Assembly (NCBI RefSeq): GCF_964204645.1
Contig: NC_134026.1
Coordinates: 15,038,150 to 15,102,149, forward strand
Source of the DNA: Tubulanus polymorphus
Taxonomy: Eukaryota > Animalia > Nemertea
DNA length: 64,000 nt
Direction: 5' to 3'
A program made the translations under genes and the position numbers. Below the pieces are notes generated by a model, which was not told the DNA's origin, ran no database searches, and saw only the letters and a program-made list of their open reading frames with translations. How positions within the stretch are numbered: the stretch's first letter is position 1; each line of letters opens with the position of its first letter. This document shows, one piece after another, positions 4,336 to 39,473 of this stretch.

Positions 4336-6285
4336 TCCTCCCCCCTTTATTAGGACTCCGATAACAGGAAACTAAAAAGAATACTTTTCGACTCTCAACC
4401 TTTAACTAAAGAACCTACCTGTCATACGATATGCACTGTATGCGATACCTGACCAACTGAAACCCCATATCTCACCCAAATTCTGATACGAATAACCTAA
4501 CTTGCTTAAAACCGATTACATAATGTTATTACTACGTTTTACCTATAACAAAAAGTATGGGCCTTGAAGCATTGGTAGATTATACTGTGGTAAGGAATTA
4601 AGGGGTTAATGCTTTAATACTACTTTAATGCTACTTTTAATAGATCAATTAATACTGAATATGATACTAGCAATCTAGTTTACTTGTCTTCAGCTTCTAC
4701 TCGAACACACAACTTGTCTACCAGGCGCCGAAAAGTGCCACTCTTGGTTCTGACATATTCGAACTAGACCTTCTAAATCAGATTCAACGGAATCTACACT
4801 TCCTAATACCCAATAATTTCTAATCTTGTTGTCAACGATCAAAACAACATCATCCACTGTCACGTTGCGTCGCTTACGATACCATTTAGTACGCTCTTGT
4901 AATATTGGCAAGTATTCAGTTGACCACCGTCTCCAAAAAAAAATCTGTGAGGTACTGGACTTGACGCCATCGCCTTCTAGAATACACATCCTTGGGATCA
5001 AAGGTACCTATAGGAAATTCACTTTGTGAATTAGCAGCCAACAGATGATTTGGAGTAATCGGTAATGGATCTGACGGGTCTTCGGACACCTCTGTTAACG
5101 ATCGACTATTCACGATGCGCTTCGCCTCGCAAAACAAAGTTAACAGATCCTCATCGGACAAGTTGTTGTCTTGTCTTTGGAGCGAGTCAAGTACTTTTCG
5201 GACCGACCGGATCATGAGTTTTCAAACGCCTCCGAAGTAGGACCCGCTTGGTGGATTAAAATCCCATGATACACTGCGCTTGCTAAGAACAACTTCATTG
5301 CATCACTGTTCAAGGGTTAAACGCCACGCTTTAATTTGCCCCAACAAGGTTCGAACCGTTATCAGGCCTAATGTGCTCAACACCACCTCTACGCACCATA
5401 AATCGTCTTACCGCTTAAACACAGGAATCAGTATCGAGCGAGTGAGCTACTTCTAAATAAACAGCTCGACTGGCGAGGCATGTAAACAACACTCCGTATC
5501 TTTTGTATATAACAGGGCCTCGCTTGATCTCGAATGGGCCAAAATAATCCATTCCTGTGTGAAAAAAAGCATGGCTTCTCCGGGGTAAGACGTTCAGCAG
5601 GCAGACTGGCCATCTTCTGACTCGATGCCTTTCCATAATACTTTCGACAATCGACGCACTTGGAGCTGACCGTTCGTGACACCAGACCTGCATGTAGCAC
5701 CCAATATTTTTTTCTTACTTCCACAACCATAATTTTCGCCCCCACGTGTCCGACACACGTGCCTTTAAAAGCAGATACAATGTTTTGGGAACAATAACTT
5801 GATGTTTTGCAGAATCTGGCAACCAAGACATGTTCAATCACCCGCGTCTCGAATAATGGGATCCAGGCGAACCAATGGACTGGTTTTCTTGACCTGCTGA
5901 CCGTTGTTGATCGATGAAGTTTCTTCTTTGAAGCCCTGACCTTGGAAATACTAACTATTTCTGCCGCATCGAACTGTTCCTTAGTCACTTGCTTAGATTT
6001 TGCCACGTCAAAATTTTGCGAACTGGAAGACCGTTTCAAACCGACACGTATCAAAGCAACTGCCTGCTTTAAACTGATCAGCAAACTATATCGATTTACG
6101 ATATTTCATAATAGGGTCATGATTTTCCGTACTTCCGTTCACGTTAATATAATTGCTGGTTTAACCTCTAGGTCTGCAGAAGGCAGTTCTCGGTTTACTT
6201 TGACTGAGGGCCAGGTAGCTTCATTATAAGCCAAAATTGGTTGGCCGGTGAACCATCGAGAATTTTCCAAACATTCTGTAACGTT

Positions 6286-6437
6286 AGTAATAGGGAATAT
6301 GTTGCTCTAGATCAAAGATGGAAAGGTCGAGTGAGTAAAAAATGAAAAATAAATTCTCGCACACTCGAATTTATTTTTCATTTTCTACCCACTCAACCTC
6401 TCAACCTTTAATCTAGAACAACATATTACCTATTACT
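6286..6437. repeat. 152-bp terminal hairpin (71-bp stem, 10-nt loop)
   Basis: 6286-6356 is the reverse complement of 6367-6437 with 9 mismatches. Confidence 0.9.
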
Positions 6438-6729
6438 CTTAAAATATTCATATTTTAAAAGTGTGAGTAAAGTGTTAGCATAATAATCTAGAAAAATAAG
6501 ATCAAATATAGATTTCGAATAATAAAATATCAATTTTCAATATAAAAAGTGTGAGTAAAGTGCAAACATAAAAAAATGCGAGAAAAAGTAATGATTAATT
6601 AACGAGTTGTTAGAATTGAAATCAATTTTTAAACATAAAAAGTGTGAGCAGAGTGTGATTGAAATAATTCATATTTTAACATTGAATATTTATATTTGAA
6701 TGAGTTTTAATATAAGTTTTGTTATTAAA

Positions 6730-7367
6730 ATGAAGAAGGAAGAAGAAGAACCCAACTTCAATATCGAAATCAATGAAGCCAATAAATTATTTTCACAGTT
6801 TAACATTAGAAATTATATTTCAGCAACAAATTTAGTGTCCGCAAGGTATTATAAAATTGATAACATTACTATGATTAATCAAATATCATCAAATGAAACA
6901 TATTTAATTACTGAACTAATTGATACGTTTGATAATGGTGTAAAAAATCCTAAAATGTTCAATACAGTTTTAAATTTTAAAGGAACTTTAGATGAAAACA
7001 TAATAAATATTCTTAAAACTCCTTTCAATGAAAGAAAAAGTGATATAATACTTTCAAAAATAATAATGATTTGATTAACTTAAGAATTGAAAAAAGACAA
7101 TTATATTATTTCAATTTTGATAATAAACAAATTATCTATAATGAAAATTCATCAAATATTGGAATTCAATGTGAATTAGATAATGAAAAATCATTCAAAG
7201 ATACAGGAACTCAATGTAACTTAAATGATGAATTTAGAAAATTCAATCCTAATGAAAAAGTGTATTGTTATTGCGGAGGTAAATATTTGAAATCACATAA
7301 ATCAAAGCATTATCAGACAATTAAACATATCAATTATGAAAATAATAATAAATATATATTGAAATAA
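6730..7367 (+). pseudogene. Probable single ~210-aa ORF with C-terminal CxC..H....H zinc finger, split by a 1-nt frameshift
   Basis: ORFs 6700-7074 and 7071-7367 join if one A is added to the A run near 7056-7060; motif VYCYCGGKY...HKSKHYQTIKH. Confidence 0.6.
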
Positions 7368-9898
7368 GATTAAGCTGTATGTTTCAAATATATAGTAGTT
7401 AAAGCATGGAGAAATTAGTTAATGAATAACTGTTAGGTAGTAAGTTTAATTGTTATTTGATTTGAAACATATAAAAGTTTAATATTTCTAAGATATTAAA
7501 TATTTATCAATTTGATAATTTTTTTCTTAAATAAATGTATGATTTCAACATACCAACTGGAAGTAGTGATTTGAAGCATTATTTCATTTTTTACTCACTC
7601 GACCATTCGACCTTTGATCTAGACTAACATATTCCCTATTACTAACGTTCTGAAGACCACGTGAAGCATCGCCGGCTGGGTTTAATTCCGTCGGGACATG
7701 GCGCCATATTTCTGGACTGCTGCCACTTCTAATGAAGTTGACTCTGTTCGCCACAATTGTCTGGTACCTGGCGCTCGTGTTTGAAATGTAATGTAACGCA
7801 TTCTGACTGTCGGTCAAGTATACAATCTTGTCAATGGGCAAAGTCATGTTTTCGACAATCATTTTGTTTTGTTGGACAGCTAACTTGGCAGCGGTAAGCT
7901 CCAAACGTAGAACTGTAATCTTTTTCCAGGGACACATTCTAGGCTTGGACACCACTATACGACTTGTAGCTTGCCCATATTTGTTGACCGAAGATATGTT
8001 ACGACACCATATTGCCTCTCGCTAGCGTCAGCAAAGTGATGTAATTCGTATTTCCACGAGCCACCGGCGATTTCGGGCTTGATACATCTTGGCAATTCTA
8101 ACTTCTCCAAAATCTTAATGCCACGTTTCCATTGATCCCATTTTCTTTTTTTGCACGTCATTAATTTCATTATCCCAGCCAAGTCGAGATCGACTTAACT
8201 CCTGCAGTAAGAGTTTAGCAGACAATAAGCCTAATGGGTCGTATATTGATTCGACGAATGCCAAGATTCCACGACGAGTGTACGCGCTTTCCTTGAGTGA
8301 AACTAGAAACTCGAGGTATCACGTTGTACGTTCCACTGTATTCCAAAAGCATTTTCTGTAGGTAATTCATGCTCCAATGTAACATCGGTTATTGATTCTG
8401 GGCGGGAATCCTTAGGCAAATTCTTAATGACCACTATGCTATTACTAATCACATCGTGCAGACGAAATCCACCCTCCTTGCACAGTTCAATTACTCCGCG
8501 ACACAAAGCTGCCGCTCCCAGATCATCGTCATCAGTAGATCAGCAGACTGTACTTAATTGGGGATGCGTTTCTTGCTGTCTTGAGTAGTGTCACCGTTTG
8601 GAAACCACCAAAAACGCAAGGAGTCTCTCTGTTCCGGTACGCGGTACGCTGCAGTGGTAATACATGGCTTCAATATCAGCCGTGAATGCTAACCTTTCCT
8701 TGAACCGTAACAACACGCCAAACAAGTCATTAGTGAGGTTGGGAGTAGGTAGCAATGTATCGTTCAGGCTTACTCCAGAGCAACGCGCCGAACAATCGAA
8801 GACCACTCGAATTTCGTTCTTCCGAGGATGGTAAACACCGTGGTGAGGGATACACCAACAAGTTGACACCATGAACTCAAATTCGAGGACTCGTTTTGCA
8901 TAACCCTTTTCAAGCAGCTTGTTCATGAATGTAGTGTAGTCGTCGGCATACTTACAATCACCGTCCATTTTTCTTCTTACAGATGACAAACGTTTCAGAG
9001 CAGCTGATTTATTTGGTGGCAACATTGTTTCCTCTGATTTGAATGGCATACACAGCAGCTCATATTTTCCATCAACTTTCTTAACATTAGAGGTCAAATC
9101 TCTTAGGAACAACTTGTCCTCTACCGACAACTGTTGCTTGTCATCAGTAAGTCATTCCGGGATATCGATATCTACAGTCTTCTGAACCAGTTCAACTAAA
9201 AGCTGCACGTTGTTGACCACATGCCGGGTTCGTGCAGAGACGTTGGCAGAGCCAGCGTGAGCGAGATTCTATAAAAGCCAACCCAACCTTGTTTTCACGG
9301 CATGCGGGTTTCCATCTGGACCCGTTCTAATATCAACGAGTAAGTACGCGTCGGGCACATTATTTCCCAGCAGGAGCATTATGTCAGCATTCACTTCATT
9401 CAGTTCGACATCTACGAGTTGAGGCCATTTCTCGATGTCACTTTTTACAGGAAAACGGTCCTTTCCAACAGGGATACTTTCTATTGAATACGTTGTAGGT
9501 AGCCGCATCGGCGTGCCACCCTTTAAGAATCTGTAATCCTTATACGACGTCACCAAATTATAGCCTTGAGGAGATGACGTAGTTCCAATGTCTAGTGTGC
9601 GCTGTCGCCCATTGCATCCCAACACATGGATCAATCGACTAGATCAAAGGGTCATGCTGCTACCGAGTTTCTAAAGATGCGTACACGATTAGTTCCTCGC
9701 CACTGTTGACGTGTGAAACCATCACCGGGATGACAGCAGTGGTACAAGTAGAACCAGCAACCTCGTGATCGGTGGTAGTTGAAGTCGGAATAAGGCTGAA
9801 AGCGTCCGATGATCTGTTGGGTTGGTTCTCTCTGTCGGTGCTCAATGTGTTTAAGTTGTCAACTTTTGATTGTTTGATGGGCTTAAATACGTGAAATA

Positions 9899-12378
9899 CA
9901 CTCTTAGAACAAAGGGTTCTACCGTAGAACCTTTAGGGGTTCTTGGGCTTGCCTCCCAGGGAGAACCCCTGAAGGTTCTTCAAAGAACCTTTTTTGTAGG
10001 GTTCCTTGAAGAACCCCTGGTAAAGGTTCTTTGAAGAACCATTTCGTATAAAGGGTTCTTGTTAGAACCCTTTCAATATTGTCAAATGGTTCTTGACAGG
10101 GTTCTTGGGAGAACCATTTAAAGGTAATTTATTTTAGGGTTCCTCAATCATTTTTTGACTGCTCAAGCTGTTCATGATTTGTCCATCCTCTGTTATGTTT
10201 GACTGCTCCCTTAATCCTCATGTGGATAAAAAAACTGATGATAAGAATCGCGTAAAATTAACATCATATAAACCTTTTTTATTATAAAATCTCATGAATT
10301 GAAATATTAATGATAAATATATTTACAATAAATGATACAAAAATAGTTTCACTAATTGGTTACATGTACAATAAGATTGAAAGATGGAGAATTTTTTTCA
10401 TTGCGCTAATCGCTTGGTATCTTAAATCGGTTGGGATTTTTTCCACACTAAGTCTAAAACAAAATGTTTTGAGAATATCTAAGTTTTTTAAAAGTTAGTT
10501 GTATAACATGTAAGATGATATGCTAAACGTATAATAGGCCGACTTATGGCAGGCCACTCCGCTTATTAAGAATCTGTCCACTTTCAATTAACTATAAGCC
10601 ATCTTCTTACATATGTTTGTTTCAACGCGCTGCCACCCTCGCAACCTTTCAACCGCAGCGTCCGGATTGTAGTCGTATATTTCCTGAAATATAAATAATA
10701 TTGAGAACAATTAATGGTGTAATAAAATCGATTATGTTTTGCAATAATGCACACTGCAAGTAAATCTAAACACTTTCTTGTATTACATGCATAAGTTCCA
10801 AATACATTTATCAGTAGAAAAGACAAACGGTTAAAGTTAACAGTGGGATTAGATTCAGAAAAATACAAACCTTTTTAATGGTTTTCAGGTCTTTCGCATC
10901 CTCTCTCAAAATCCCTGGTAATACGTGAAGCTCTGCTGTTCTCATCATATCTGAAAACCAGTGAATATGTAGATTGAAAATGATTATCTTCTATCAAAAT
11001 ACAGTCACACAATAAAGGCTCATTGAGTCAAAATTTACTAACCTGTTTCTGCAATTTCGCTGCTTCGAAGGAAGGAAGCGACACGATTGCCATGTGTACA
11101 GACTTCGTACATTTCTATAATTCTTTCCGCCATAGTTCCGAGATTTCAAAAACATATTTTGCACCGCGGTCTCACAATATGGTCAACTTCCATGGAACAA
11201 TTTCTATAATACAAAAGTAATGGGAAAGTTTTAAATAATAATTATGGCTGATCTGATTCCGAGTCACTCCGGCTTTATGGCCTATATTTCATATATTTCA
11301 AATATCACAAATGTTATATACATTCATTGAATACAACTTACCAGAATTAATTCACATTTCCAAGCTCCAGATATTCATCTTACAAAACAACGAAAAGAAC
11401 GAGTCGATATACTATATGCACTATGCACTGAGCAAAGTTTGTATGAGTCGTGGTGGCAGATAATTATACAACAGTTAGTTGCATGAACAAAGGAATAATT
11501 GCCTGATCATGTACACATGGCCTATAGGCACGAAACTACAATAGCATGATACTTATTAGGCCTAAAGCATTACGTTACTTTGAATTTCCACTATACTCTA
11601 TGTTTTTATTCAACAAAAAATGTACAAAGACTTCGACTGAATGTTTTGATAGAAATTGAGCCGAAAATACACACAATTCTCATTTTTGAGTTGCATTAGA
11701 ACTTTGAATTAACTAGTTCTTTTTAAACTGCACAGTCCATTCAGAAATCAGAAACGCCTAGAGTTTAGAAGAGTTTAATTGTTTTTTTAAAGCATTAAAA
11801 AGCATTGTTCTTTTCTCTGCCGTCTCTCCATAAAACCTAGTCGATGTCTCAGACTAGCAAATCAAGTTATTCAGTCTCTACATATTATTATCAGTCGATG
11901 TCGCAGACTAGCAAATCAAGTTATTCAATCTCTACATATTATTATCACACGTTAAAGGCATTCACCACTGATTTTAAACATACGACTTTTTAAATCTTAA
12001 AGAACGAATTAAAAAAAAGGTTCATTAATTTTAAAAATGCATCCTTGTCGCACACGGTCACCATTTTTTAAATATTGTGATGATACATAGTAAATTGTTT
12101 TCAAAGTTAACCCAATTCTAATTTCCAGTCAAAATGTTTTGTATATAACCTACACCACATAGAAAATCAGTTATATTCATCAGCTATACTAATTATTCCC
12201 TGTTGCAGGTCTACTTAATTCTTAATTGACAATTGTGACCACATTAGGGTTCTTATAAGAACCCTTATGTCTCGAAGAACCCCAATCTACATTTCATATT
12301 GTTGAAGCACCTCAAAGCCTCACCAAGAACCCCAAGGTTCTTCGAAGAACCCCCGAAGAACCATTTGTTCTAAGAGTG
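9899..12378. mobile_element. Non-autonomous CACT-terminal TIR DNA transposon (EnSpm/CMC-like)
   Basis: TIR CACTCTTAGAACAAA(g/t)GGTTCT at both ends; TA duplicated at 9897-9898 and 12379-12380; many GGTTCT/AGAACC subterminal repeats; removing it rejoins BEL gag. Confidence 0.85.
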
Positions 12379-20900: not shown

Positions 20901-22402
20901 AGAAATCTCCGTCAGTCCGAGTGCATTCTATATACATGCATTATAATGGCGACGTCATGAGCGTGCAATTCAATACAAGAATCAGTCCAGAATCCATATC
21001 GTACTAATATTCCAAATACACAAAACCGACAAGGTCTGACGTCTGCTTGGAAGGTAGGCGCTGCAGGTGCGCTTCTCATTGATTGCGGCCTAACCTTCTT
21101 CAGAAATGTGTCCCTGTCAGTGCCGGTTGCAGCATAGATTTATCCTGACCAAGCTGCTCGTCCATAAACAGGGTCTAAGGATTCCCTGGTTTCCTTCTTT
21201 CACGAAGTTCATCAACATTTCACATGTGATGTTTGTGCCAGCATCTCTGTTTGCCGAAACTAAGCTGCGCCAATTTGAAAAAATGAAATGGCAATTTGGT
21301 CACTAAGCGTTTCATATTCTCAGAAAATCCAGGAAATAAAGGTACGCACTGCGTTAACGTTAACGTCTAGAAGACATAGTTGTACTCGGGTAGAAAGAGG
21401 GGGGATCGTCCAATGCCTCGGTGTTGCCTTAAAACGTGGCAAATTCAGAGCCTTGTTGACATATAACATAACAAACATAACTTAGTGTCTTTTAACTATA
21501 GCGCCTTTCCACAATACGTGTTCAAAGCGCTATCTCCTTGGTGGTGGAGTGATCTTTAAACAGCCAGAACTTTAACATGGTTTTGAAACTGTCAACGGAC
21601 TGTAAAAATGGCGTGTTTTGGTTCGCGGTACACATACACGACACGATGCCGACACGCTCGTAATAGCTGTCTCGTTCCTCGAGAGCTTAAAAAATAATTG
21701 ATGATTTTAAACCAATATTAAAAAATCTGGATTTAATATAACTGAAAAAGGTGCTACACTTTTAGCACCAAATTTGATAGAATTAAATGGTGATTGTTAT
21801 TGGCATTGGAACGATAACTATTATTTTGAGATATCTTCTAATAAAAGTCGTGATTAAATTAAATGAAGTCATGACTTTGGTTAAATAAGAGCAATCTAGA
21901 ATTAAAATAATAAGTAATAATAATGATATAACTGATGTTTCAGCACAAGAAATAAATGAAAATAGAGGCATATTTAATCGAAGAAATTGTGATTTTTTTT
22001 AAGATAAATAATGAAAATTAAGAACCAGAAACAATTCCTAACGAAGTTATTAATTAAAAATCCAGTAGACTTGTATCAACGGAAGCTCAAACTGAAAAAC
22101 TTTTACCGGAAGGGATTTCGGATACAACGGATCAAGAAATAGAAGATTTAAATAACTATTTTTATGATAAAGGGATTAGAGAAATTGAAGGTATAAGAAA
22201 TGAAGCTGATAAAATTGTACACGAAATAAGGATAAGAGATCAGAAAATTGTGACTTTAAAAGATGAATTATTTAAATCAAATAAAGAATTAGAACAATTA
22301 AAATGAGATAGAGATTAAAAAAAAGTTATTGAAGAAATTGAATTTAAAAAAAGAAATGCATATTAAGAAGAAGAAATTGATGATTTAAAATACAATATAG
22401 AA

Positions 22403-22502
22403 ATATAGCTGCTAAGCAGCGATGACGGGTTTTCTGCAAAGCCATTCAGAATGATGGGAATTGTAGTAAATTGAAATGCCGATACATAGAATAAAGTGCA
22501 TC
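22403..22502. mobile_element. Terminal fragment of the same Helentron-like family
   Basis: atagctgctaagcagcgatgacgggttttctgcaaagccattcag matches 13156 and the reverse complement at 61683. Confidence 0.7.
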
Positions 22503-26243: not shown

Positions 26244-27149
26244 ATCAGGGTCAATCCCCATTTTAAGATCAAAACATGCTGCCACGATCGTACAAGACAC
26301 CGGCTACGAATGTCTTACTGGCAGAACCGAGCCTATACTTTTTGAGAAGGATCACTCTCTCGCTATTAGCGCATCGGGCTGACGTCATTTCCAGTCGATT
26401 GACATTGTCGTTATTTGCATCAATGTTGGTCGAGCACGGATTCGGGTTTTCCTGTGCCATATTTTTAGGCGGGAAAACGGTATGAAAACAGAGCTTGGAA
26501 AATCAAATTTTGAGACGATGTTTCGCTCTAGCCGGCGCTATTATGATATGGTAATAGTGCTTGTGTAGTGTGGTGTGGTGTTTTCGTCCATTTCGACCAT
26601 TTCCGAACGGTTTCGGTAAATGTTTAAGCACTATGTGCCGGTTTCAAACAATTGAAACACATTTTTTGCGTGTGATAGCGAAGTTACGATCGATAGCACT
26701 CAAAAAGCATTGATAGATTCGGTAGTTCTGACCATATTATACACACAAATTCGGTTTCGGTGTACTGACGAACATTTTGGGTGGTCATCGAATTATATCC
26801 CGCGTTTTCGCCTACACGTTCACCTAAAAGTAATTACAAAATGGCGTTTTTCAGATCAGAGGTCGAGGGTTCGACAAATCACTCGCCACCACTCGTCCAC
26901 ACAAGTAATTTTTTCTATATAAATGGGAGACATTCTTGGCTTCAATAAATAATAGAATAAAACCAACAAAAAACAATATGAAATGAAAAAAATTAGTCGA
27001 TGTTTCACAAGAAATCGAACATAAAATATTAAAATAAGAAAAATTAAAACTAAATATGGTAAAAAGTATCAGCAAATTAGAAAATAAAAATAAGTTTTAA
27101 AAAATCTAATCTTTTTTTGCTTTTTTTTCCTGACATAATCAAACTTTTT

Positions 27150-28100
27150 AATATAAAAGCGTTGATAAAATAATATAATTTTTCAATATATAAAGTGTGA
27201 GTAAAATGATTTAGATTTTAGGTATGAAAAGTGTGAGTAGTGTGGGTAAAATAATTAAGATTTTTCAATATTAAAAGTGTTAGTAAAGTATGAGTAAAAT
27301 ATTTTAGACTTTTTACATAGAATATAGTAAAATAATTAAATTTCTAATAACAAAAGTAAAATGATTTAGATTCTATAATACAAATTATCCAGAAAATTCA
27401 TTTTATTAAAAATTTTGTTATGTAAATGAAAGAAGAAATCGAATTTAAAATTGAAATAAAAGAATCTAATAAACTACTTTCACTAAAACATTAAATATTA
27501 AAAATTATATCTCAGTAAAAAATCTAGTGTATGGAAGACAATATAAAATTGATAATATCACTATAATTAATCTCATATTTTTTCAAACGAAACATATTTA
27601 ATTACTGAAGTAATACATACTTTCGATAATGGCGTCAAAAATCCTAAAATATTTAATACAGTTTAAATTATAAAGGTAATTTAGATGTAGAAATAATACT
27701 CTTAATATTCCTTTTAATGAATGAAATTGTGAGTTAATACTTTCAAAAGGTAAAAATTATATGATAAACTTGATAAAGAATTGAAAAAACGACAATTATA
27801 TTATTTTAATTTGATAATAAACAAATTATTTATGATGAAAATACATCAAATATTGTTATTCAATGTGATTTAGAAAATAATAATAGGTTTTTTAAAGATA
27901 GTGCAATTCAATGTGATTTAGAAAATAATAAATCTTTTTTAGATATTCCAATTCAATGTGATTTAGAAAATGAATTTAAAAAATTCAATCCTTATGATTG
28001 ATTTGATGTAAAGTATTGTTATTGTGGAGGTAAATATTTAAAATCACATAAATCAAAGCATTATCAAACAATTAAACATGAAAACTATGAAAAGAGTAAT
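27150..28100 (+). pseudogene. Degenerate homolog of the mini-element interior (Zn-finger ORF plus AAAGTGTGAGTAAA repeats)
   Basis: Colinear with 6450-7350, e.g. tattgttattgtggaggtaaatatttaaaatcacataaatcaaagcattatca. Confidence 0.8.
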
Positions 28101-28482
28101 AATTCTCCATTCAAAAAAGAATTAAGTAATTTTACAAATTATATCATTCAATTAAATAAAAGTTTAATATTTTAAAAATGATTAATCAAATAATTGTTAT
28201 ATTAAAGTTTTTTATTATCTAAAAAGTTAAAATCAATGAAAAGATAACGGATTTAAATCAAATTATTATTAAATTAAGTTAAATGATTTGTTTTAGAGAT
28301 AATTGAATAAATAATTCATTTAAATCAAACAATTGTTCAATCAAATGTTTGTGATATTTAAATAGTTAAAACCGATGATAAGATAATTGATTCTTAAAAC
28401 AATATTATTAAATTAAGTTGAATTATAGGCATATCAGTTAGTCATTTCGGATTCTTGACATTTAAATTAACTGTTTATAGAA

Positions 28483-29881
28483 TCTTTCGACGCTGTTTCC
28501 TTGTTCACAAATATACCATTGGAACCAACTCTCAATTTACTCCCGGACTCCAATCTTGATCTCCCAATTCCCGTAGAATGTTTACTTGAACTTTTGGAAC
28601 TCTGTACAACCAATCTATATTTCCAATTCCAAGACAAATTCTATGAACAAATTTTCGGTTTCGCTATGGGTAACCCATTATCCCCCATTTTGGCTAATCT
28701 TTTTTCATTGAACACTTTGAATCCGAAATTCTCCCTAAGTACGCTGGCTCTAAACCTAACTTTTGGATTAGATATGTTGATGACATTCTGTGCTTAGTTT
28801 CTGATAATTTTGATCTTACCTCTTTTATCGACTTCATCATCTCCCAATATCCATCTTTGAAATTCACTTTTGAATGGGAACAAAATGACCAAATTCCGTT
28901 TTTAGATGTTCTAATTCACAATAAATTTTCTCATTTGATTTTCTTAGTCTACCGTAAACCGATCAACGCCGAGGCATACCTTCACTTCTTTTCGTTTACT
29001 GCTAAATAAATCAAAATTGGTCTTGCTCAAGGCCTCTTTCTACTACGGATCTACGATGAAACCTTCCTTTCGGCTGAATTTGAACATATATCCAACTCTC
29101 TTAGAAAATTGGCTAACCCTGATCACATTTTCAGAATAGCTATTTCTAAGGCTAAACGTACTTTCTTCAATTCTAAACCTCCAGAAAATTAAAAAAACCC
29201 ATTTCAGAGTTCATTGTAGTTCCGTATGTACCTGTTTTGGAAAAGTTTCGTCACTCTCTCCCTTTATTGGATAAACAAATCATTTTCACGTATGAAAACA
29301 AAATTATTAAGACTTGGGTTAAAAACAATCAATCTTAACCATTGGACTGCGGAGTTAACAAAATTCCTTGTTTTGGCTGTGATAAAATTTACTTTGGAGA
29401 AACTGGTCGTGATTTAAAAACTCGAATTTCGGAACACAAAAAGGATATATCATAAATCAAAAACCGGCTAGTGGCGTAGCCAATCACGTTTGGAACACTG
29501 GTCATCGTTTTAATTTTGATAAAGCCGAAATTATTCATACTTCCAGCAATTACACTAAACGCCACATAGTTGAGTCTGCCCTAATTACCCGTCACTCAGA
29601 TATTAGTACCAATTTAAATAATGGCTTTTCTCCGCATAATTCCCTTCTTTCTAATTATATTACTTCATGCCTTGCCAAACACTAAATATTTACTCACTCA
29701 CCAATTTACTCAATTAACGTGTCCTCCTCTGTATATATACCCCTGTTTTTAATCTATATCTCACACCTGACGATGATCTCTAGGGTGAGATCGAAACGTC
29801 GTGTCTTTTATATATTTTTGATTGAATAAATAAATTCTGGTTTTTAAATTCTTTTAATCTGTAAATAGTGGGATTTTATCT
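28483..29881 (+). mobile_element. 5'-truncated Penelope-like retroelement (RT + GIY-YIG), decayed
   Basis: SFDAVSLFTNIP, FYEQIFGFAMGNPLSPILAN, WIRYVDD, IPFLDV, VYRKP; endonuclease KIPCFGCDKIYFGETGR.LKTRISEH. Confidence 0.9.
29763..29804 (+). ncRNA. Minimal type I hammerhead ribozyme
   Basis: Stem I ACAC/GTGT, core CTGACGA, stem II GATCTC/GAGATC, GAAA, minimal palindromic stem III, GTC cleavage triplet; lies in the Penelope 3' repeat. Confidence 0.85.
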
Positions 29882-30399
29882 TAAAATAAACCCAACCATT
29901 ATTATTTTCTTATTTAAATTATCATAGAATTTCGGTAATTTGTTAAAATTTAATGTTTCTAAATCCAAAGTTTCTATTTTACCATAACCTAATTTATTAT
30001 TATAGATATTATAAAAACTATTAGATGGTATGGGAAGTGTACAATATTCTACGATCATTTTAGGGCAAGGAAGTGATCTTATTTTTCCAAGTTTTGTTCT
30101 GAAATCAGAATGAATTATATCTATATTAAATTCATTACAAATTTTATAAAACTTTGATAAATTGATATTATTATCTAATTCTTTAAAATATCTAGATCCT
30201 GGCAAAGGGGTCTCTAATTCATTTAATATTAATCTTATTTGAAAATAAGTATGGAATCTAAATACACTTTGAATTAATTTATATTTAGAATTATTCAAAT
30301 GATCATTCCAACTAATTCCACATCCTGTTGTTGCACAATAAACTGCAAAATTTAATTGGTTCTGCCAATATTTCATATTAGATTTTAATAACCATTGTT
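29876..30399 (-). pseudogene. C-terminal part of a Polinton-associated ORF (WQNQLNFAVYCATTGCG), split by the 30400-42033 insertion
   Basis: Joins ORF 42034-42256 in frame across the TSD: KDEKQ|WLLKSNMKYW. Confidence 0.8.
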
Positions 30400-30803
30400 A
30401 GTAATAGGGATAATGGGCTTTCATACCAAAGGTCGAACGGTCGAGCCCATTAAAAAACAAAATATTAAAAGTAATTAAAAACTATAATATATTTTCATAA
30501 CCGCGTGCATTTTATATTAAAACTAAATATTTATTCTAAGATATCAATAATATAAAAAGCATATTGTATTAAATCAATTGGTCGCTCCACTTCGCTACCG
30601 CTCCGCTCCGCGACCAATTGATTTAATTACAATACACAAATTCAAATAATCAAATATATTCAAATGATAATAATTATTCTATTATTCAACTGAAATGCAC
30701 GCGGTTATGAAAATATATTATAGTTTTTAATTACTTTTAATATATGTTATTAATGAACTCGATCATTAAACCTTTGATATGAAAGCCCATTATCCCTATT
30801 ACT
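30400..30803. repeat. 404-bp imperfect terminal hairpin (mirrored at 41630-42033)
   Basis: AGTAATAGGGATAATGGGCTTTCATA at 30400 and its reverse complement ending at 30803; inner stem attaaatcaattggtcgc / gcgaccaattgatttaat. Confidence 0.9.
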
Positions 30804-30883
30804 CTTAAAATATTCATATATATGAATAACATTTAAATCATTGAACTTCTAAAATCAATTTTAATAAAAAATATAGTATTGAA

Positions 30884-31144
30884 ATGGAAGCAAATAAGTA
30901 CTACTGCCCAACATGTTATATCGATATAGATAAATCCCAAAAAGCAAGACACAATAAAACTAGAACACATTTAGAAAATAAATTGAAACTAGAGTATTCA
31001 GAACAGTTAACAAAAGGAAAGAAATTTATTGAATTATGGAACACTGATCCAAATAATGAACAATACGTTGAGGATACGATGTTTATACTAGAAAATCATT
31101 CTATTTTAGCCTATATACATTCAATGTACAGAGCTATAGAATAA
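30884..31144 (+). CDS. Small zinc-finger protein, 86 aa
   Basis: YYCPTC......KARHNKTRTH; open in both arms. Confidence 0.7.
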   Translation: MEANKYYCPTCYIDIDKSQKARHNKTRTHLENKLKLEYSEQLTKGKKFIELWNTDPNNEQYVEDTMFILENHSILAYIHSMYRAIE

Positions 31145-31829
31145 ATCTATAAATTCACAGCTGTTACAGTTGTTACTATAACGACGAGACATTATGACAC
31201 GTCATAATCAGAAACGTGTAGAATATTCTAGAAAAGGCGCGCCGGAACTAGATGACGTGGCATAATCAACGACGTGTTCATTCTAGAAATCGCCCCGGAA
31301 ATGGACATATGCTGTAATATTGTGCTCAGGATATTCTATCTTTCGAAACGAAATAAGGAGTTTATAGTATACAATTATAAATCTAAATGTTTGTTATAGT
31401 TATTAAGGTTATTAAATATGAAACCTTTAGATATATTTAAGTGTATTTAGTATATCTTTTAGATAGCTAGAGTTACCGCTAATATCTTTTAGATTAATAA
31501 AACGCCATACGCATCAAGAAGCGATAGAGAAACTCAAGATACTCTTTCTGCCTGAGGAATCAACAGCAATGGATATCAAACCAATAGAATCACCAAAAGA
31601 TCAACGAAGAAACTATATAAGAATTTCAAAAACATTAAGACTCCAATGATTAAGTTTAACATTTGTTGATGTAGTTAAATATTTACCAGCAATTGAAAAA
31701 ATGTTTGTAATTATAAATTGTATTTATAGAAATCAAATGATGTATTAGAAGAAATGACTGAACAACTTGTATAATGTATTGTGTAAATCTGATTTGTGAA
31801 TTTTTATGTTCAGTCGTTTCTATTATGTT

Positions 31830-32140
31830 TAACGCATGCGCATTAAGCAAAACCGGCCATAAATGGCCGCATGTGACACATGTAACGCATGTGACGAGGG
31901 ACATGAATGCGTTCGAATTTTCTATGTTCAGTTGTTTCTATTTTACAGAATTTATAGAATGAATATACAATTATGATTAGCGCATGCGTATTGATCAAAA
32001 CCGGCCATAAATGGCCGCATGTGACACATGTAACGCATGTGTTGTTTCTATTTTACAGAATTTATAGAATGAATATATAATTATGAATAACGCATGCGCA
32101 TTAAGCAAAAACGCTCCTGTATGTCCGCATGTGACGCGGG
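31830..32140. promoter_or_regulatory. Triplicated GC-rich motif block upstream of the HNH gene (candidate enhancer or origin)
   Basis: TAACGCATGCGCATTAAGCAAAACCGGCCATAAATGGCCGCATGTGAC in about 3 copies; includes CC(A/T)6GG and GCATGCGC. Confidence 0.45.
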
Positions 32141-32284
32141 TATTGTAACTGGTATTATTTAGATATCAAGGAATCGAAACAACTTATCAAAAGCAACGAA
32201 GAATGAAAAAGGATGACGTTAGTCGAAGAAATGGAAGAGGATTATAAAATATTAACCAATTTAGTAAAAAAATACGTATAATAA

Positions 32285-32959
32285 ATGGAACCAGAACAAC
32301 CACAAATTATCAATATTACAAATAACACTGGCGTTATAAACATATACTACAAGAAGTGTTCTAAATGTGAATTAGATAAATCATTAACAGAATTTAGTAA
32401 GCGTAAGATTAGCAAAGATGGTTTTCAATATTATTGTAAAACTTGTATTAAACTATATACCAAACAATATCGAGAAGATAATAGAGAATCTTATAATGAT
32501 TATATGACAGAATATATGAGAGAAAGATATCAAACAGATCTTAATTTTAGATTGAAACAATGCTTAAGATCTAGATTAACACAATTATTCAACAAAGAAA
32601 CACATTCAGAAACATTATCTAATTTATTGGGTTGTTCAGATGAATTTCTCAAATCATGGATTATATTTCAATTCGATGATAAAATGAATATAGATAATTA
32701 TGGGGATTATTACCATATTGATCACGTGTTACCAATATCTAAATTTAACATGAATGATGAATACAATAAAAAACTTATTTGGAATTGGAAAAATTTAAGA
32801 CCTTTAGAAAAGAAAGAAAATCAAATCAAATCTAATAAACTAGATTTACAATTATATTTGGAACAGTTGAATAAAGCAAGGAAATTTATTGATTGGTGGA
32901 ATAGTAACCCACAGAATGAACAATACGTTGAGGAATTTGATATCAAGGATCCGAAATGA
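32285..32959 (+). CDS. HNH-family endonuclease with N-terminal Cys4 zinc module, 224 aa
   Basis: KKCSKC....L.EF......DG....CKTC; YHIDHVLP...WKNLRPL...EN..KSNK. Confidence 0.8.
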   Translation: MEPEQPQIINITNNTGVINIYYKKCSKCELDKSLTEFSKRKISKDGFQYYCKTCIKLYTKQYREDNRESYNDYMTEYMRERYQTDLNFRLKQCLRSRLTQLFNKETHSETLSNLLGCSDEFLKSWIIFQFDDKMNIDNYGDYYHIDHVLPISKFNMNDEYNKKLIWNWKNLRPLEKKENQIKSNKLDLQLYLEQLNKARKFIDWWNSNPQNEQYVEEFDIKDPK

Positions 32960-33261
32960 CTTATCTGGACAGTTATAGTTACTGCTCCTAATAGATAGAC
33001 AATAGTAGTGAGATATCAAATAGAATTCAAATAAAATATATTAAAAAAACAATAACTTCAACTAGCTAATGAATTCTATTATATTTTTAATATTTTCTTT
33101 TCAAAAGAGAATACTTTATATTTTGAATAGATTCAAATAGAAATTCTTTAAATTCAAATAGCTAGTATCAGTAGTCAATACTAGAATTCTTTAACTTTAA
33201 CTAGCTAGTATCATTTGAAGAATACTTATAATACTATTCTTATTAAATTTCTCTAATATAA

Positions 33262-33864
33262 ATGTCAAAGAAATCTAATAAGGATAGTATTGATATTGAA
33301 AAAACATTAGATGATTTGGGTATTAGTGATAATAAAGATACAGTTGTTTCTAATTCTATTCAAGTTAATAACAATATAGATTATGAATACTATTTATATT
33401 GTAAGCATCATCTTGAATTATTAATTGCTGGTGGAAAAACTAAAGAGTTTTTAACTAAGACTATTACTTTTCAAGAATTAGATGCTATGAAACCCGATCA
33501 AGTAATAAAATATTTTAAGATTTATGAAGAGGCAAGATTATCTAAAATAAATGATTCTATTTCTAATGGTATTGTCAAATGTTATTCTAAGTTATGTAAC
33601 CAGTTAATACCAATTGATGATGAAAATAAATTATATAATGATTTGAAAAATGACTATTTAGTTATGACTGAATTACAAAAATGGGTTGGATATGCTTCAT
33701 TTCAATTAGGATCGGTTATGACATTGATTTCTACTGGAGTTATAACATTTTCGAATATCAAACCTATGGAATATAAATCAGGTAAGAACGAAACAGATGT
33801 ACTACAACAAAACGTCGAAACAGAAAATGAATCAGAACAAAAATTAACTAAAATAAATGAGTGA
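33262..33864 (+). CDS. Polinton-associated hypothetical protein, 200 aa
   Basis: Intact ORF in a tightly packed cluster with integrase and ATPase. Confidence 0.7.
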   Translation: MSKKSNKDSIDIEKTLDDLGISDNKDTVVSNSIQVNNNIDYEYYLYCKHHLELLIAGGKTKEFLTKTITFQELDAMKPDQVIKYFKIYEEARLSKINDSISNGIVKCYSKLCNQLIPIDDENKLYNDLKNDYLVMTELQKWVGYASFQLGSVMTLISTGVITFSNIKPMEYKSGKNETDVLQQNVETENESEQKLTKINE

Positions 33865-34051
33865 TGGAGTTAAGAAAAAGCCTAGATCTGAGAAACAAAT
33901 TAAATGGGCAAGAGAATTAGGTAAAAGATCTTCAGAATCAAAAAAAGCTAAGAAAAAGAAATTAACTGATATAAATGAATCACCTGATATTGATTCAAAT
34001 AATAATCCATCTAATTCTTCTAATGCTGGAAGTAATTATAAATTAAAGTGA
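33857..34051 (+). pseudogene. Deletion-truncated copy of the 114-aa protein
   Basis: About 205 bp missing near 34045 relative to the right arm. Confidence 0.75.
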
Positions 34052-35084
34052 AGTATCATATTCTAACGTTTCAGAATTATGGAATAAAATTAAATCTGAT
34101 AATAATATAAAATATAGTGAATTAAAATCATGGTTACAAAATCAACCCACATATAATATTCATAAAAAGATGGATAAAAAATATTTAACAAGAAAAGTAA
34201 TGGTTTCATATATTGACCAACAATGGCAAGCTGATTTAATTGACATGAAAAACTTAGAAGAATACAACAAAGGATATTTCTGGATACTAAATGTTATAGA
34301 TATATTCAGTAGATACGCATGGAGTATCCCGATTAAAAATAAAACTGGTATAGAAGTTACAAATTCTTTCAAATTAATATTTAAAGAAGCTATCCCAGAT
34401 AAAATACAATTTGATGAAGGTAAAGAATTTTATAACAAACATTTCAAAAAACTATTATCTGATAACGATGTAGAATATTTTTCAACACATTCAGATAAAA
34501 AAGCATCTGTTATAGAAAGATTTAATAAAACATTGAAAACTAGAATGTGGAAATATTTTACTGCTAATGAAACATACAAATATATCGATGTGTTAGATGA
34601 TTTAGTGAAAGGTTATAATAATTCTAAACATAGTTCTATAAATATGAAACCTATACAAGCTAGAAAAGAAGAAAATTCAGAAATAGTTTGGAATAATTTA
34701 TATGGTGCGTTTGTTACACATGATTTTGGAGAACCTAAATTTAAAATAGGACAACATGTTAGAATTTCTAAATATCGAAAAACATTTTATAAAGGTTATA
34801 CCCCTAATTTTACTGAAGAAATATTTAAAATTAAAAAGATAATATCAACTAAACCATTTGTTTATAAATTGTTTGATTTAAAAGATGAAGAAATATTAGG
34901 TTATTTTTATGAACAAGAATTATCATTAGTACCAAATCCAGATGAAATAGAATACAAAATAGAAAAGGTATTAAAAACTAAAACATTACGCGGTAAGAAA
35001 TATTCTCTGGTGAAATATAAAGGATATGATGATAAATTTAATGAATGGATTTTATCTAGTAAAATTAAAAGAATAAATGAATAA
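34047..35084 (+). pseudogene. Polinton rve integrase, left-arm copy lacking its start
   Basis: Matches 37142-38227 except that the native start is removed by the deletion. Confidence 0.85.
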
Positions 35085-35688
35085 AGATTTGTTTATATTT
35101 GAACCACATAATATGTTAGTTACTGGAGTTACAAATTGTGGTAAAACACACTTCATATTATATTTATTAGAAACTATTTATCAGAATCATTTTGATAATA
35201 TAATATTATTCTGTCCTACATATGAAATGAATAAAACATATAATAGAGATATAGTTAAGATAAAAAAGTTTATTATATTAGACCCTAAAACAGTAAAAGG
35301 AAATTTAGATAATTGTATAAAAATTGCATTAGATATTTATAAAGGATCTAATACATTATTTATTATTGATGATTGCGCAAATTTACATGATTCTAAAATT
35401 AGAGAAAGTGAGTTATGTTATTTAGCTTTCTCTGGTAGACATTTTGGGATAACAACATGGGTTTTAAATCAGAAATATAATTCAATTGTGAAAGATTTTA
35501 GAGAGAATATAAGATTTCTAGTTTTATTCTACAACAAAGATAAAAAATCTATGCAACAATCATTGGAAGAAAATCAAATTATACCTACTGAATTACATGA
35601 TGAATATATGAATAAATTAAAGAATAATAAAGGTTCAAAATTATTAATGAGATTACAATTTCCCTATGAATATAAATTTATAAAATAA
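35077..35688 (+). CDS. A32/FtsK-HerA-type DNA-packaging ATPase, 203 aa
   Basis: Walker A GVTNCGKT, Walker B LFIIDD, SGRH, LNQ, REN motifs. Confidence 0.9.
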   Translation: MNKDLFIFEPHNMLVTGVTNCGKTHFILYLLETIYQNHFDNIILFCPTYEMNKTYNRDIVKIKKFIILDPKTVKGNLDNCIKIALDIYKGSNTLFIIDDCANLHDSKIRESELCYLAFSGRHFGITTWVLNQKYNSIVKDFRENIRFLVLFYNKDKKSMQQSLEENQIIPTELHDEYMNKLKNNKGSKLLMRLQFPYEYKFIK

Positions 35689-36006
35689 AATCCTAATTCA
35701 AAATATTATAGAATTCACTGTATACTGATGGATGAGTGGATGAATTGGATGAATTGGATGAGTGGATGAATGGATGAGTGTAATAATATATATATTTTAC
35801 TTTTTAACACATAAATTGGAAGAATAGTATGAGTATAAATACAATATTTATATTCTTTATTAAATTTAACACAATATATATATATATATATATATATTAT
35901 TAAAATAATATTTAAATATAATATAAAATTGATAAAATAACTTCAAATCAAACTCTTACTGTTTTAAAAATAAAAAACATATGTAAATTATATATTATTA
36001 CACTAT

Positions 36007-36810
36007 AAATGTCATATAATAATAAATATATTTTTATAAAATAATAAAATGATAAATAATAAAATGATAAATATATTTTTATATAATAATAAAATGATAA
36101 ATAATAAATGTCAGATAAATAATAAAATGATAAATGTCATATAATAATAAATATATTTTTATAAAATAATAAAATGATAAATGTCATATAATAATGAATA
36201 TATTTTTATAAAATAATAAATATATTTTTATAAAATAATAAAATGATAAATAATAAATGTCATATAATAATAAATATATTTTTATAAAATAATAAAATGA
36301 TTAATAATAAATGTCATATAATAATAAATATATTTTTATAAAATAATAAAATGATAAATAATAAATGTCATATAATAATAAATATATTTTTATAAAATAA
36401 TAAAATGATAAATAATAAATGTCATATAATAATAAATATATTTTTATAAAATAATAAAATGATAAATAATAAATGTCATATAATAATAAATATATTTTTA
36501 TAAAATAATAAAATGATAAATAATAAATGTCAGATAATAATAAATATATTTTTATAAAATGATAAAATGATAAATGTCATATAATAATAAATATATTTTT
36601 ATAAAATAATAAAATGATAAATAATAAATGTCATATAATAATAAATATATTTTTATAAAATAATAAAATGATAAATAATAAATGTCATATAATAATAAAT
36701 ATATTTTTATAAAATGATAAAATGATAAATAATAAATGTCAGATAAATAATAAAATGATAAATGTCATATAATAACAAATATATTTTTATAAAATAATAA
36801 AATGAGAGAT
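36007..36810. repeat. AT-rich 54-bp tandem array
   Basis: Unit aaatgtcatataataataaatatatttttataaaataataaaatgataaataat (e.g. gtcata at 36421 and 36475). Confidence 0.9.
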
Positions 36811-37116
36811 AATAAAATAATAAAAAGATAATATAATAAGCCAGAATTTTCTAGCTTATTATATATATAATATATATGATGTATATTGATATATCTTATA
36901 ATAAATAATATTTTAATGTAAAAATTTTTACATTTAATATTTTAATTATAGAATATCAATATACATCATATATATTATATATATAATAAGCTAGAAAATT
37001 CTGGCTTATTATATTATCTTTTTTTATTATTTTATTATCTCTCATTTTATTATTTTATAAAAATATATTTATTATTATATGACATTTATCATTTTATTAT
37101 TTATCTGACATTTATT
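36731..37116. repeat. Central loopless palindrome, the symmetry axis of the element (36924|36925)
   Basis: aatgtaaaaa|tttttacatt at the apex; bulged AT-rich segment beside it, near-perfect stem further out. Confidence 0.9.
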
Positions 37117-37141
37117 ATGTGGTTCAAATATAAACAAATCT

Positions 37142-38227
37142 TTATTCATTTATTCTTTTAATTTTACTAGATAAAATCCATTCATTAAATTTATCATCAT
37201 ATCCTTTATATTTCACCAGAGAATATTTCTTACCGCGTAATGTTTTAGTTTTTAATACCTTTTCTATTTTGTATTCTATTTCATCTGGATTTGGTACTAA
37301 TGATAATTCTTGTTCATAAAAATAACCTAATATTTCTTCATCTTTTAAATCAAACAATTTATAAACAAATGGTTTAGTTAATATTATCTTTTTAATTTTA
37401 AATATTTCTTCAGTAAAATTAGGGGTATAACCTTTATAAAATGTTTTTCGATATTTAGAAATTCTAACATGTTGTCCTATTTTAAATTTAGGTTCTCCAA
37501 AATCATGTGTAACAAACGCACCATATAAATTATTCCAAACTATTTCTGAATTTTCTTCTTTTCTAGCTTGTATAGGTTTCATATTTATAGAACTATGTTT
37601 AGAATTATTATAACCTTTCACTAAATCATCTAACACATCGATATATTTGTATGTTTCATTAGCAGTAAAATATTTCCACATTCTAGTTTTCAATGTTTTA
37701 TTAAATCTTTCTATAACAGATGCTTTTTTATCTGAATGTGTTGAAAAATATTCTACATCGTTATCAGATAATAGTTTTTTGAAATGTTTGTTATAAAATT
37801 CTTTACCTTCATCAAATTGTATTTTATCTGGGATAGCTTCTTTAAATATTAATTTGAAAGAATTTGTAACTTCTATACCAGTTTTATTTTTAATCGGGAT
37901 ACTCCATGCGTATCTACTGAATATATCTATAACATTTAGTATCCAGAAATATCCTTTGTTGTATTCTTCTAAGTTTTTCATGTCAATTAAATCAGCTTGC
38001 CATTGTTGGTCAATATATGAAACCATTACTTTTCTTGTTAAATATTTTTTATCCATCTTTTTATGAATTTGATATGTGGGTTGATTTTGTAACCATGATT
38101 TTAATTCACTATATTTTATATTGCTATTATCAGATTTAATTTTATTCCATAATTCTGAAACGTTAGAATATGATACTTCACTTTCTGGGTTATAATATAA
38201 ATCTCTTAAATATTGTTCTTTTTTCAT
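37142..38227 (-). CDS. Polinton/Maverick rve integrase with C-terminal chromodomain-like region, 361 aa
   Basis: DDE residues in WQADL, QFDEG, VIERFN; PKFKIG..VRISK; YKIEKVL...LVKYKGY....NEWI. Confidence 0.93.
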   Translation of the reverse strand: MKKEQYLRDLYYNPESEVSYSNVSELWNKIKSDNSNIKYSELKSWLQNQPTYQIHKKMDKKYLTRKVMVSYIDQQWQADLIDMKNLEEYNKGYFWILNVIDIFSRYAWSIPIKNKTGIEVTNSFKLIFKEAIPDKIQFDEGKEFYNKHFKKLLSDNDVEYFSTHSDKKASVIERFNKTLKTRMWKYFTANETYKYIDVLDDLVKGYNNSKHSSINMKPIQARKEENSEIVWNNLYGAFVTHDFGEPKFKIGQHVRISKYRKTFYKGYTPNFTEEIFKIKKIILTKPFVYKLFDLKDEEILGYFYEQELSLVPNPDEIEYKIEKVLKTKTLRGKKYSLVKYKGYDDKFNEWILSSKIKRINE

Positions 38228-38233
38228 CTTATT

Positions 38234-39171: not shown

Positions 39172-39473
39172 TTATATTAGAGAAATTTAATAAGAATAGT
39201 ATTATAAGTATTCTTCAAATGATACTAGCTAGTTAAAGTTAAAGAATTCTAGTATTGACTACTGATACTAGCTATTTGAATTTAAAGAATTTCTATTTGA
39301 ATCTATTCAAAATATAAAGTATTCTCTTTTGAAAAGAAAATATTAAAAATATAATAGAATTCATTAGCTAGTTGAAGTTATTGTTTTTTTAATATATTTT
39401 ATTTGAATTCTATTTGATATCTCACTACTATTGTCTATCTATTAGGAGCAGTAACTATAACTGTCCAGATAAG

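Follow-up and report, generated by a model that had tools for sequence, protein, structure and literature searches.

How does a 1,358-bp element in which no integrase gene is recognised come to be inserted cleanly into another transposon, and why does one of its ends fold back on itself? The question is raised by a 64,000-nt stretch of the Tubulanus polymorphus contig NC_134026.1 (positions 15,038,150 to 15,102,149; hereafter the window, from whose first letter all coordinates are counted). The mini-element occupies 6286-7643 and has 62-nt terminal inverted repeats (TIRs) and a 6-bp target site duplication (TSD). We consider it probable that it is a TIR hitchhiker with no integrase of its own, for which larger Polinton-like relatives supply the rve enzyme in trans, and that the inner arm of its foldback is a pseudo-end kept similar to the outer arm by conversion. 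Here we infer trans-mobilisation, the roles of the end motifs and arm conversion alike.

Ends and body of the mini-element

The mini-element and its borders are made up as follows (strand in brackets).

6280-6285, left copy of the TSD, AACGTT, identical to the hexamer at 7644-7649
6286-6356 (+), left outer arm, with tip AGTAATAGGG, a decayed first GGTCGA, an intact second GGTCGAG and GTGAGTAAA; functions as the actual left end
6357-6366, 10-nt foldback loop, varying in reads at 6359 and 6363 only
6367-6437 (-), inner arm, an inverted third copy of the end repeat; tip with one mismatch, both GGTCGA units changed to GGTTGA
6438-6453 (+), junction 16-mer CTTAAAATATTCATAT, common to an 11.6-kb element (30804-30819, and 41614-41629 on the minus strand)
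6443-6668 (+), three subterminal direct repeats of about 90 bp, each with the 18-mer AAAAGTGTGAGTAAAGTG (two mismatches in the third)
6700-7074 (+), first gene piece, ATG at 6730, only a weak sub-threshold Pfam match
7044-7367 (+), second gene piece, out of frame with the first; has a CxCGG...H...KH zinc-binding module at residues about 70-105
7582-7643 (-), right TIR, with intact GGTCGAATGGTCGAG and tip AGTAATAGGG on the minus strand
7644-7649, right copy of the TSD, AACGTT, matching 6280-6285

The host sequence is a BEL/Pao pol remnant, in which the minus-strand open reading frame (ORF) 7584-8021 matches Peptidase_A17 (E 3.1e-09). The minus-strand frames on both flanks translate the TSD hexamer as the same codon pair, NV, so the insertion is clean, and the mini-element sits in frame within the remnant. 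The initial annotation had described just such an insertion with the duplication AACGTT, and the exact coordinates, the peptidase match and the NV pair on both sides bear it out. The end inverted repeats proper are 6286-6347 and 7582-7643; the search tool returned a 68-nt stretch (6280-6347 and 7582-7649) with 93% complementarity, a figure that counts the TSD, itself palindromic. The left foldback consists of two 71-nt arms (6286-6356 and 6367-6437) that are 87% complementary and 10 nt apart. Folded as single-stranded DNA, 6286-6437 gives -41.2 kcal/mol (z = -13.6), and none of 200 shuffled sequences was as stable (-8.9 ± 2.4). The right end has no foldback in an inverted-repeat search of the window. 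No integrase was found in the mini-element (ORF list and Pfam scan), which supports the earlier claim that it is non-autonomous. Its tips and subterminal motif agree with those of a second element in the window that does encode an integrase.

That second element is itself nested in a third, decayed relative, which we call H. L002 and L003 below are two metagenome contigs that carry related genes.

26829-28126 (+), left end of H, with tip AGTAATTACA... and GGTCGAGGGTTCGA at the usual distance; AT-rich
30400-42033, 11.6-kb element with 4.7-kb near-identical inverted arms; TSD ATTGTT at 30394-30399 and 42034-42039
30400-30803 (+), its 404-bp terminal foldback, mirror copy at 41630-42033; then the same 16-mer
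34047-35084 (+), left-arm integrase copy, shortened at the N-terminus (rve E 3e-09)
35077-35688 (+), A32-type packaging ATPase in the single-copy centre (Pox_A32 E 1.1e-10), 80% identical to the L002 and L003 ATPases
37142-38233 (-), full-length rve integrase with chromo-like C-terminus (rve E 6.2e-09; Chromo below cutoff)

The ends of the two elements share a set of motifs. The tip AGTAATAGGG is exact at 6286(+), 7634(-), 30400(+), 30794(-), 41630(+) and 42024(-), and has one mismatch at 6428(-); at up to one mismatch, nine window matches were found against 3.44 expected. The 16-mer CTTAAAATATTCATAT is exact at 6438, 30804 and 41614(-), in each case directly adjoining an inner tip (0.62 expected at up to two mismatches). 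The layout of a terminal foldback followed by this junction thus recurs in both elements, and two further statements of the initial annotation, the identity of the first 10 nt with those at 30400 and the recurrence of the 16-mer after the hairpin at 30804, are exact to the letter. The 19-mer CAAAGGTCGAAYGGTCGAG has six window matches at up to three mismatches, against 0.01 expected. It had been given as shared by the two elements, and it does occur in both; within the mini-element, however, it is exact only in the right repeat (7598-7616), and the left outer arm has three mismatches. The working ends of both elements carry the same tip plus GGTCGA-N3-GGTCGAG at equal distance from it, with the exception of the first unit in the left arm of this copy. 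The inner arms of both elements are devoid of the motif, with GGTTGAGAGGTTGAG in the mini-element and GGTTTAATGATCGAG in the 11.6-kb element, which suggests that the inner arm is not used. Both elements integrated via their outermost tips, AGTAATAGGG...CCCTATTACT, each with a 6-bp duplication.

Over 71 nt, identity in the mini-element is 87.3% between outer and inner arm, 87.5% between outer arm and right repeat, and 80.6% between inner arm and right repeat. In the 11.6-kb element, outer and inner arm are 82.2% identical over the first 71 nt and 77% identical over about 200 nt. Any arm of one element compared with any arm of the other gives 62-70%. Arms that are alike within an element (82-87%) and not between elements (62-70%) exclude a single ancient duplication followed by independent drift; to judge from these comparisons, the foldback arms are either kept alike or arose more than once. 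In the 9 nt adjoining the loop, the inner arm agrees with the left outer arm and departs from the right repeat.

One more motif was noted at these ends. The 9-mer GTGAGTAAA is found at 6331-6339, 6463-6471, 6551-6559, 7590-7598(-) and 27197-27205, with eight window matches against 0.76 expected. Both working end repeats contain it, as do the subterminal repeats of the mini-element and H, and the inner arm has an altered version; it may be a second unit for protein binding.

The body of the mini-element has another affinity. Window 27401-28126 in H is the counterpart of its interior (E 4e-132; 73.4% over 741 nt), and 27165-27325 that of its subterminal repeats, giving a homologous span of 27165-28126. 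The 18-mer AAAAGTGTGAGTAAAGTG has six window matches against 0.09 expected, and the three outside the mini-element lie in H at 27191-27290. A cut-down copy of the 11.6-kb element was considered and rejected: the body is unlike that element and matches H, and the zinc-finger ORFs of the two elements are unrelated (mini-element ORF against 30884-31144, E 2.2). The mini-element therefore appears to be a mosaic, with ends of the 11.6-kb-element type and a body of the H type.

H itself comprises 26829-30399 and 42040 to about 45900, and is a decayed Polinton-like element collinear with L003; its right end was not found within the window. The 11.6-kb element interrupts the H homologue of the 442-aa ORF of L003. 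A homologue of L002 sequence and of the 485-aa L003 ORF (54-56% at the protein level) survives as an isolated fragment at 22028-22405, apparently another remnant of the same virus-like lineage.

The inverted arms of the 11.6-kb element (30400-35113 and 37113-42033) are 97-100% identical in blocks, and its terminal foldback (30400-30803) folds at -116.6 kcal/mol (z = -22.8). No polymerase, protease or capsid gene was detected in it by Pfam scan and comparison with relatives, and its layout looks like that of a copy-back derivative without its capsid half. The right-arm integrase aligns with residues 1-361 of a 362-aa relative, the left-arm copy with residues 16-361 of it. The element is not a perfect palindrome: the left arm is short of 206 bp of the right arm (near 34045 versus 38184-38390), a loss that truncates the N-terminus of the left integrase and makes a 64-aa ORF of a 114-aa one. 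The centre also holds an AT-rich tandem array (54 bp x 10, GC about 8%, single occurrence). Each arm has a 224-aa ORF (32285-32959 and 39474-40148(-)) with a C-terminal half that is HNH-like by eye; its L002 homologue gives a weak Pfam HNH match (E 0.0055). Over its final 34 residues the 224-aa ORF shares 62% identity with the tail of the small zinc-finger ORF 30884-31144.

Other copies in sequencing reads

Raw Illumina reads under the same species label, from another study (run X4), were compared with the window. About 12% of the run was read, reads were taken at 90% likeness or more, and the depths given here sum both direction columns. Flank bins had a depth of about 5-14, with 5-6 at 6226-6275 and 12 at 6276-6285. 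Depth was 86 at the outer tip (6286-6295), about 500 at 6316-6335 and 1,490-1,880 at the foldback centre (6336-6375), then 123-203 in the inner arm, 326-439 over the inner tip and junction (6426-6445), about 240 at 6476-6515 and 225-309 in the body (6671-7338). The step from 12 to 86 falls exactly at 6286, so other copies end at the same nucleotide in other surroundings. With a depth of about 30-45 times that of the flanks, the mini-element family is multi-copy, at tens of times flank depth.

Reads also join parts of the foldback in ways that differ from this copy. Two groups of 136 and 47 reads follow the reversed outer arm to 6314 or 6311 and resume at 6429 into the junction, on opposite strands; another 148 follow an arm like the right repeat to 7615 and resume at 6429. 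Such joints are expected of copies in which a better-preserved inner arm leads into the same junction. In variant copies, 6384 is linked to 6457 by 12 other letters (about 130 reads), and further joints gain or lose one subterminal repeat unit. Most reads differ from this copy at 6318 and 6320, within the damaged first GGTCGA unit. In about 1,850 reads across the loop, two of the ten positions vary (6359 and 6363), so there is no flip/flop. Outside the mini-element, 4500-4666, just upstream of the BEL/Pao remnant, has a depth of about 245 against 2-14 alongside, breaks off sharply in loose ends at 4557 and 4592, and represents a separate repeat of high copy number.

The initial annotation had credited the mini-element with a single zinc-finger ORF and nothing else. 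A zinc-binding module is indeed present, but the reading frame consists of two overlapping out-of-frame pieces, with the module in the second only. Of 234 reads across 7059, a position within the overlap, 144 have a length other than that of this copy, so the frameshift is confined to it or to a minority of copies; the 'zinc-finger ORF' represents a single gene, disrupted here by that frameshift. The first piece (6700-7074) has no detectable homologue, none of nine candidates being significant. The module of the second matches 38 representatives at E <= 0.001 (best 4.2e-12). A Pfam scan of nine module matches found a GIY-YIG nuclease domain in three, and the module is mostly repeated in the six matches whose sequences were inspected.

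Probable mobilisation in trans and other explanations

In the mechanism we favour, an rve integrase of the type encoded at 37142-38233 would bind the tip and the GGTCGA repeats of the two outermost ends, cut at ...CT-3', and join both outer ends to the target with a 6-bp stagger. The inner arm would be an inactivated pseudo-end. The body would be the remnant of an H-type left end, with its subterminal repeats and its first gene, coding for a small zinc-finger protein. The simplest way to keep the foldback arms alike would be gene conversion from arm to arm, the inverted repeats being closely spaced, and this would make arms match within elements and not between them.

Several observations weigh against this account. 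Transposition was not observed. Apart from the tip and the GGTCGA motif, the mini-element ends and those of the 11.6-kb element are no more than 66-70% identical, and the integrase that truly serves the mini-element family may be encoded elsewhere. The first GGTCGA unit is damaged in the left outer arm, so this copy may no longer move. The evidence for other copies consists of read depth and joints: no second copy was read with its own TSD, and neither loose ends at 6286 or 7643 nor individual alternative flanks were among the rows listed. Copy number comes from a run that shares the species label only, and the flank is itself a retrotransposon, so the depth baseline may not be single copy. 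Contigs of two further sets (X1 and X2) carry the same insertion junctions and may derive from the source sample of the assembly, in which case they are not independent. The initial annotation had made the hairpin a family feature; arm plus junction does recur in reads of other copies, but in the window search the tip of H at 26829 has neither an inverted copy nor a foldback, and the foldback thus belongs to part of the superfamily, not to all of it. Finally, depth at the 50-nt foldback centre is about 300 times that of the flanks (in the body, about 45 times), and the centre is mostly flanked by other arms (loose ends before it at 6336/6338 in 836 reads and behind it at 6384 in 467 reads). 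This makes the centre common to a more abundant palindromic repeat.

The abundance of the centre favours an explanation by capture, which we nevertheless regard as unlikely. A separate tiny foldback element, formed of back-to-back ends or as a snap-back product, would have landed in a longer relative, close to its left end and beside the 16-mer; subsequent moves would have paired the outer tip of the foldback with the right tip of its host and abandoned the old left end, with CTTAAA as a TSD remnant. The foldback does span tip to tip, the form of a complete minimal element, its inner tip adjoins CTTAAA as the right tip adjoins the target, and a centre at about 300 times flank depth implies many foldbacks away from this body. 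Contigs and reads that join 6374/6378 directly to 7586 fit body-less foldbacks and fit variant inner arms equally well. One ancient capture, however, cannot give arms that are alike within elements and not between them unless conversion is added, and two independent captures must have hit the same nucleotide beside the sole 16-mer common to both bodies. Near the loop, moreover, the inner arm copies the left outer arm and not the right repeat. That the resemblance to the 11.6-kb element is superficial, the mini-element belonging to another DNA-transposon superfamily or its inverted repeat having arisen by chance in AT-rich DNA, is highly improbable. The ends are only about 68-70% alike overall and the bodies are unrelated; against this stand the identical 10-nt tip, the 19-mer at the same offset (six matches against 0.01 expected), the identical 16-mer junction and the equal TSD length in two events. 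The body is also homologous to H, which has the same tip type and the gene order of a capsid-bearing relative, and the depth step falls exactly at the tip.

The covariation of the arms can be read in another way. The foldback may be a maintained cis-acting structure selected for base pairing, as a snap-back primer, an end-protecting hairpin, or an insulator or promoter before the first gene. We give this reading a small chance, though not a negligible one. The arms diverge between lineages (62-70%) and stay complementary within them (87% in the mini-element, 82% and 77% in the large one), and the loose-end sequences that flank the shared centre in other subfamilies are mutually complementary by eye. 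In both elements the foldback is highly stable and lies directly ahead of the 16-mer and of the first gene, which reads rightward; no polymerase gene was found in the scanned ORFs. Yet arm-to-arm conversion accounts for the covariation without any function, and the right end of the mini-element and the left end of H manage without a foldback. Simple hairpin transfer would produce loop flip/flop, which is not found among the reads, and ORF scans of the window and its relatives revealed no Rep or nickase gene. A stronger form of this idea, which we think quite unlikely, is that the one-sided foldback is a working part of a polymerase-less Polinton-like lineage, in which a free DNA end would snap back to prime or protect via host enzymes, and that the same chemistry made the 4.7-kb arms. 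If true, the snap-back foldback would be a hairpin-based replication mode in a Polinton world otherwise thought to be protein-primed. The within-element covariation of the arms is a testable handle on whether these elements go through single-stranded or snap-back intermediates.

Lineage and comparison with known systems

A search with the integrase gave 1,324 homologues among 2,157 candidates, nearly all of those listed with rve and Chromo domains. The closest (85-87% identity) are in metagenome contigs and the named ones come from animal genomes; one bears the source name 'transposon-derived protein F54H12.3'. In L002 and L003 the integrase, ATPase and neighbouring ORFs are collinear with those of the window; the L003 integrase is 69% and its ATPase 80% identical to the window's. 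An AlphaFold model of a 415-aa L003 protein (32 sequences; mean predicted local distance difference test score, pLDDT, 87.9) matches double jelly-roll major capsid proteins, namely those of iridovirus (8hif, E 1.6e-15), PBCV-1, mavirus and Sputnik. This fold was seen in the metagenomic L003 only, and comparison with relatives found no capsid homologue in the window; the A32-type ATPase is present in the window too. No protein-primed polymerase was among the Pfam matches of 20 window ORFs and 19 L002/L003 ORFs, a negative that covers the partial contig L003 and H as far as it is recognisable, with a polymerase possible elsewhere. Relatives with a capsid and an rve integrase and no polymerase point to a Polinton-like virus or transposon lineage. 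For the 442-aa and 485-aa ORFs of L003 no Pfam family was found; in PDB the former had no match and the latter none better than E 0.008, and the latter had no usable Atlas match. L003 also encodes a deoxynucleoside kinase at 10340-10981(-) (dNK, E 1.7e-31). More distant integrase relatives (about 50% identity, e.g., P0080, P0093, P0096) have PF08398 in the precomputed Pfam list, some with PF18930 as well; we take PF08398 to be the parvovirus-coat N-terminal phospholipase A2-like domain.

The end motifs were sought in wider sequence collections. Among 67 metagenome integrase loci, neither GGTCGA-N3-GKTCGA nor the inner tip plus 16-mer occurred (0/67 each); a single internal AGTAATAGGG in locus L038 is unrelated. 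Among 29 such loci of at least 3 kb, no terminal or foldback inverted repeats of at least 40 nt were found, the sole match being AT-rich and in L003, so these contigs stop short of the element ends. IMG/VR gave no integrase relative by single-sequence patterns and no junction pattern; the 18-nt motif has two exact matches there, both internal to long contigs and without an AGTAAT tip in the vicinity, and these were set aside as chance. GTDB genome contigs contained neither the junction nor the tip-plus-motif pattern. Rfam hits on the foldback were plant miRNA-precursor look-alikes at 30 bits, against a gathering score of 73, and were rejected as generic hairpin matches. Apart from these elements, a small palindrome, TAGGGTTTTCTGT ... 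ACAGAAAACCCTA, has two copies 17 kb apart (45942-45986 and 63359-63403), the second within another AT-rich stretch at the window end.

The initial annotation spoke of a Polinton satellite. The mini-element and the 11.6-kb element both have 5'-AG...CT-3' termini (AGTAATAGGG...CCCTATTACT), and the third element has the tip AGTAATTACA; this tip rule is reportedly that given for Polintons by Kapitonov and Jurka in 2006. Both also have TIRs and a 6-bp TSD (62-nt TIR with AACGTT in the mini-element, ATTGTT in the larger one). The rve integrase is found in the 11.6-kb element only, not in the mini-element. A 6-bp TSD is described as typical of Polintons in a passage of an anole survey (PMC3014272), and a passage of PMC5499653 makes the protein-primed polymerase part of the definition. 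Tips, TSD and the integrase of the partner thus agree with the name, and the polymerase was not found; strict membership does not hold, and the lineage is better called Polinton-like, with an rve integrase.

By its gene content the lineage behaves as a Polinton or Maverick or, put more narrowly, as a Tlr1-type or rve-integrase Polinton-like virus. Compared with Polintons/Mavericks, the partner element has the rve integrase with a chromo-like tail and the A32-type ATPase, together with TIRs and 6-bp TSDs. Unlike them, the elements and relatives examined yielded no protein-primed polymerase or protease, the mini-element is enzyme-free, and one of its ends is a foldback. Tlr1 of Tetrahymena and the rve-integrase Polinton-like viruses, as outlined in PMC5499653, have capsid, ATPase and rve integrase without a protein-primed polymerase, and rve-integrase Polinton-like viruses are given TIRs of 100 bp to 8 kb and 5-6-bp TSDs in a passage of PMC12220804. 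The capsid, ATPase and integrase set of L002 and L003 is similar. These systems, among them the cryptophyte clusters in PMC12220804, are however 14-40-kb capsid-coding protist elements, whereas the host genome here has BEL/Pao, the nearest named integrase relatives are in animal genomes, the window copies are devoid of a capsid gene, and a 1.36-kb derivative was amplified. Signs of hairpin-telomere or rolling-hairpin (parvovirus-like) replication were not seen, with no flip/flop in the reads and no Rep-like Pfam match in the scanned ORFs.

In foldback (FB) elements each end is built from a long tandem array of short repeats, and movement depends on a different transposase. The mini-element resembles these and 'double' elements in its snap-back palindromic end and the extra inverted end inside the element; unlike FB elements, it has a single non-repetitive inverted copy at one end only. 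In a full-text literature search that did not extend to Repbase, subscription journals and supplements, no account turned up of Polintons with foldback ends or with small multi-copy derivatives, and a prior description elsewhere is possible. One 'Polinton' and 'hairpin' match (10.1101/2022.05.25.493380) concerns protein beta-hairpins and is irrelevant.

For the mini-element itself, the parallel is with miniature inverted-repeat transposable elements (MITEs). Like these, and like non-autonomous TIR elements in general, the mini-element is without a transposase or integrase, has TIRs and a TSD of the type of its partner, and reaches a copy number, judged by read depth, above that demonstrable for the partner. 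It is longer, gene-bearing and furnished with subterminal repeats, a mosaic of two relatives with three end copies instead of two, and at 1,358 bp the term 'MITE-like' suits it better than MITE in the classic sense. To define what such an integrase recognises, the family is a compact natural substrate, with a 10-nt tip plus two GGTCGA units and the decayed inner arm as a built-in negative control. In the literature consulted here, Polinton-type elements appear large, low-copy and capsid-bearing, and the anole survey mentions in one passage an apparent absence of non-autonomous copies (PMC3014272). The amplification of a 1.36-kb derivative to tens of copies suggests that hitchhikers can exploit the integrase of this lineage, much like MITEs exploit cut-and-paste transposases.

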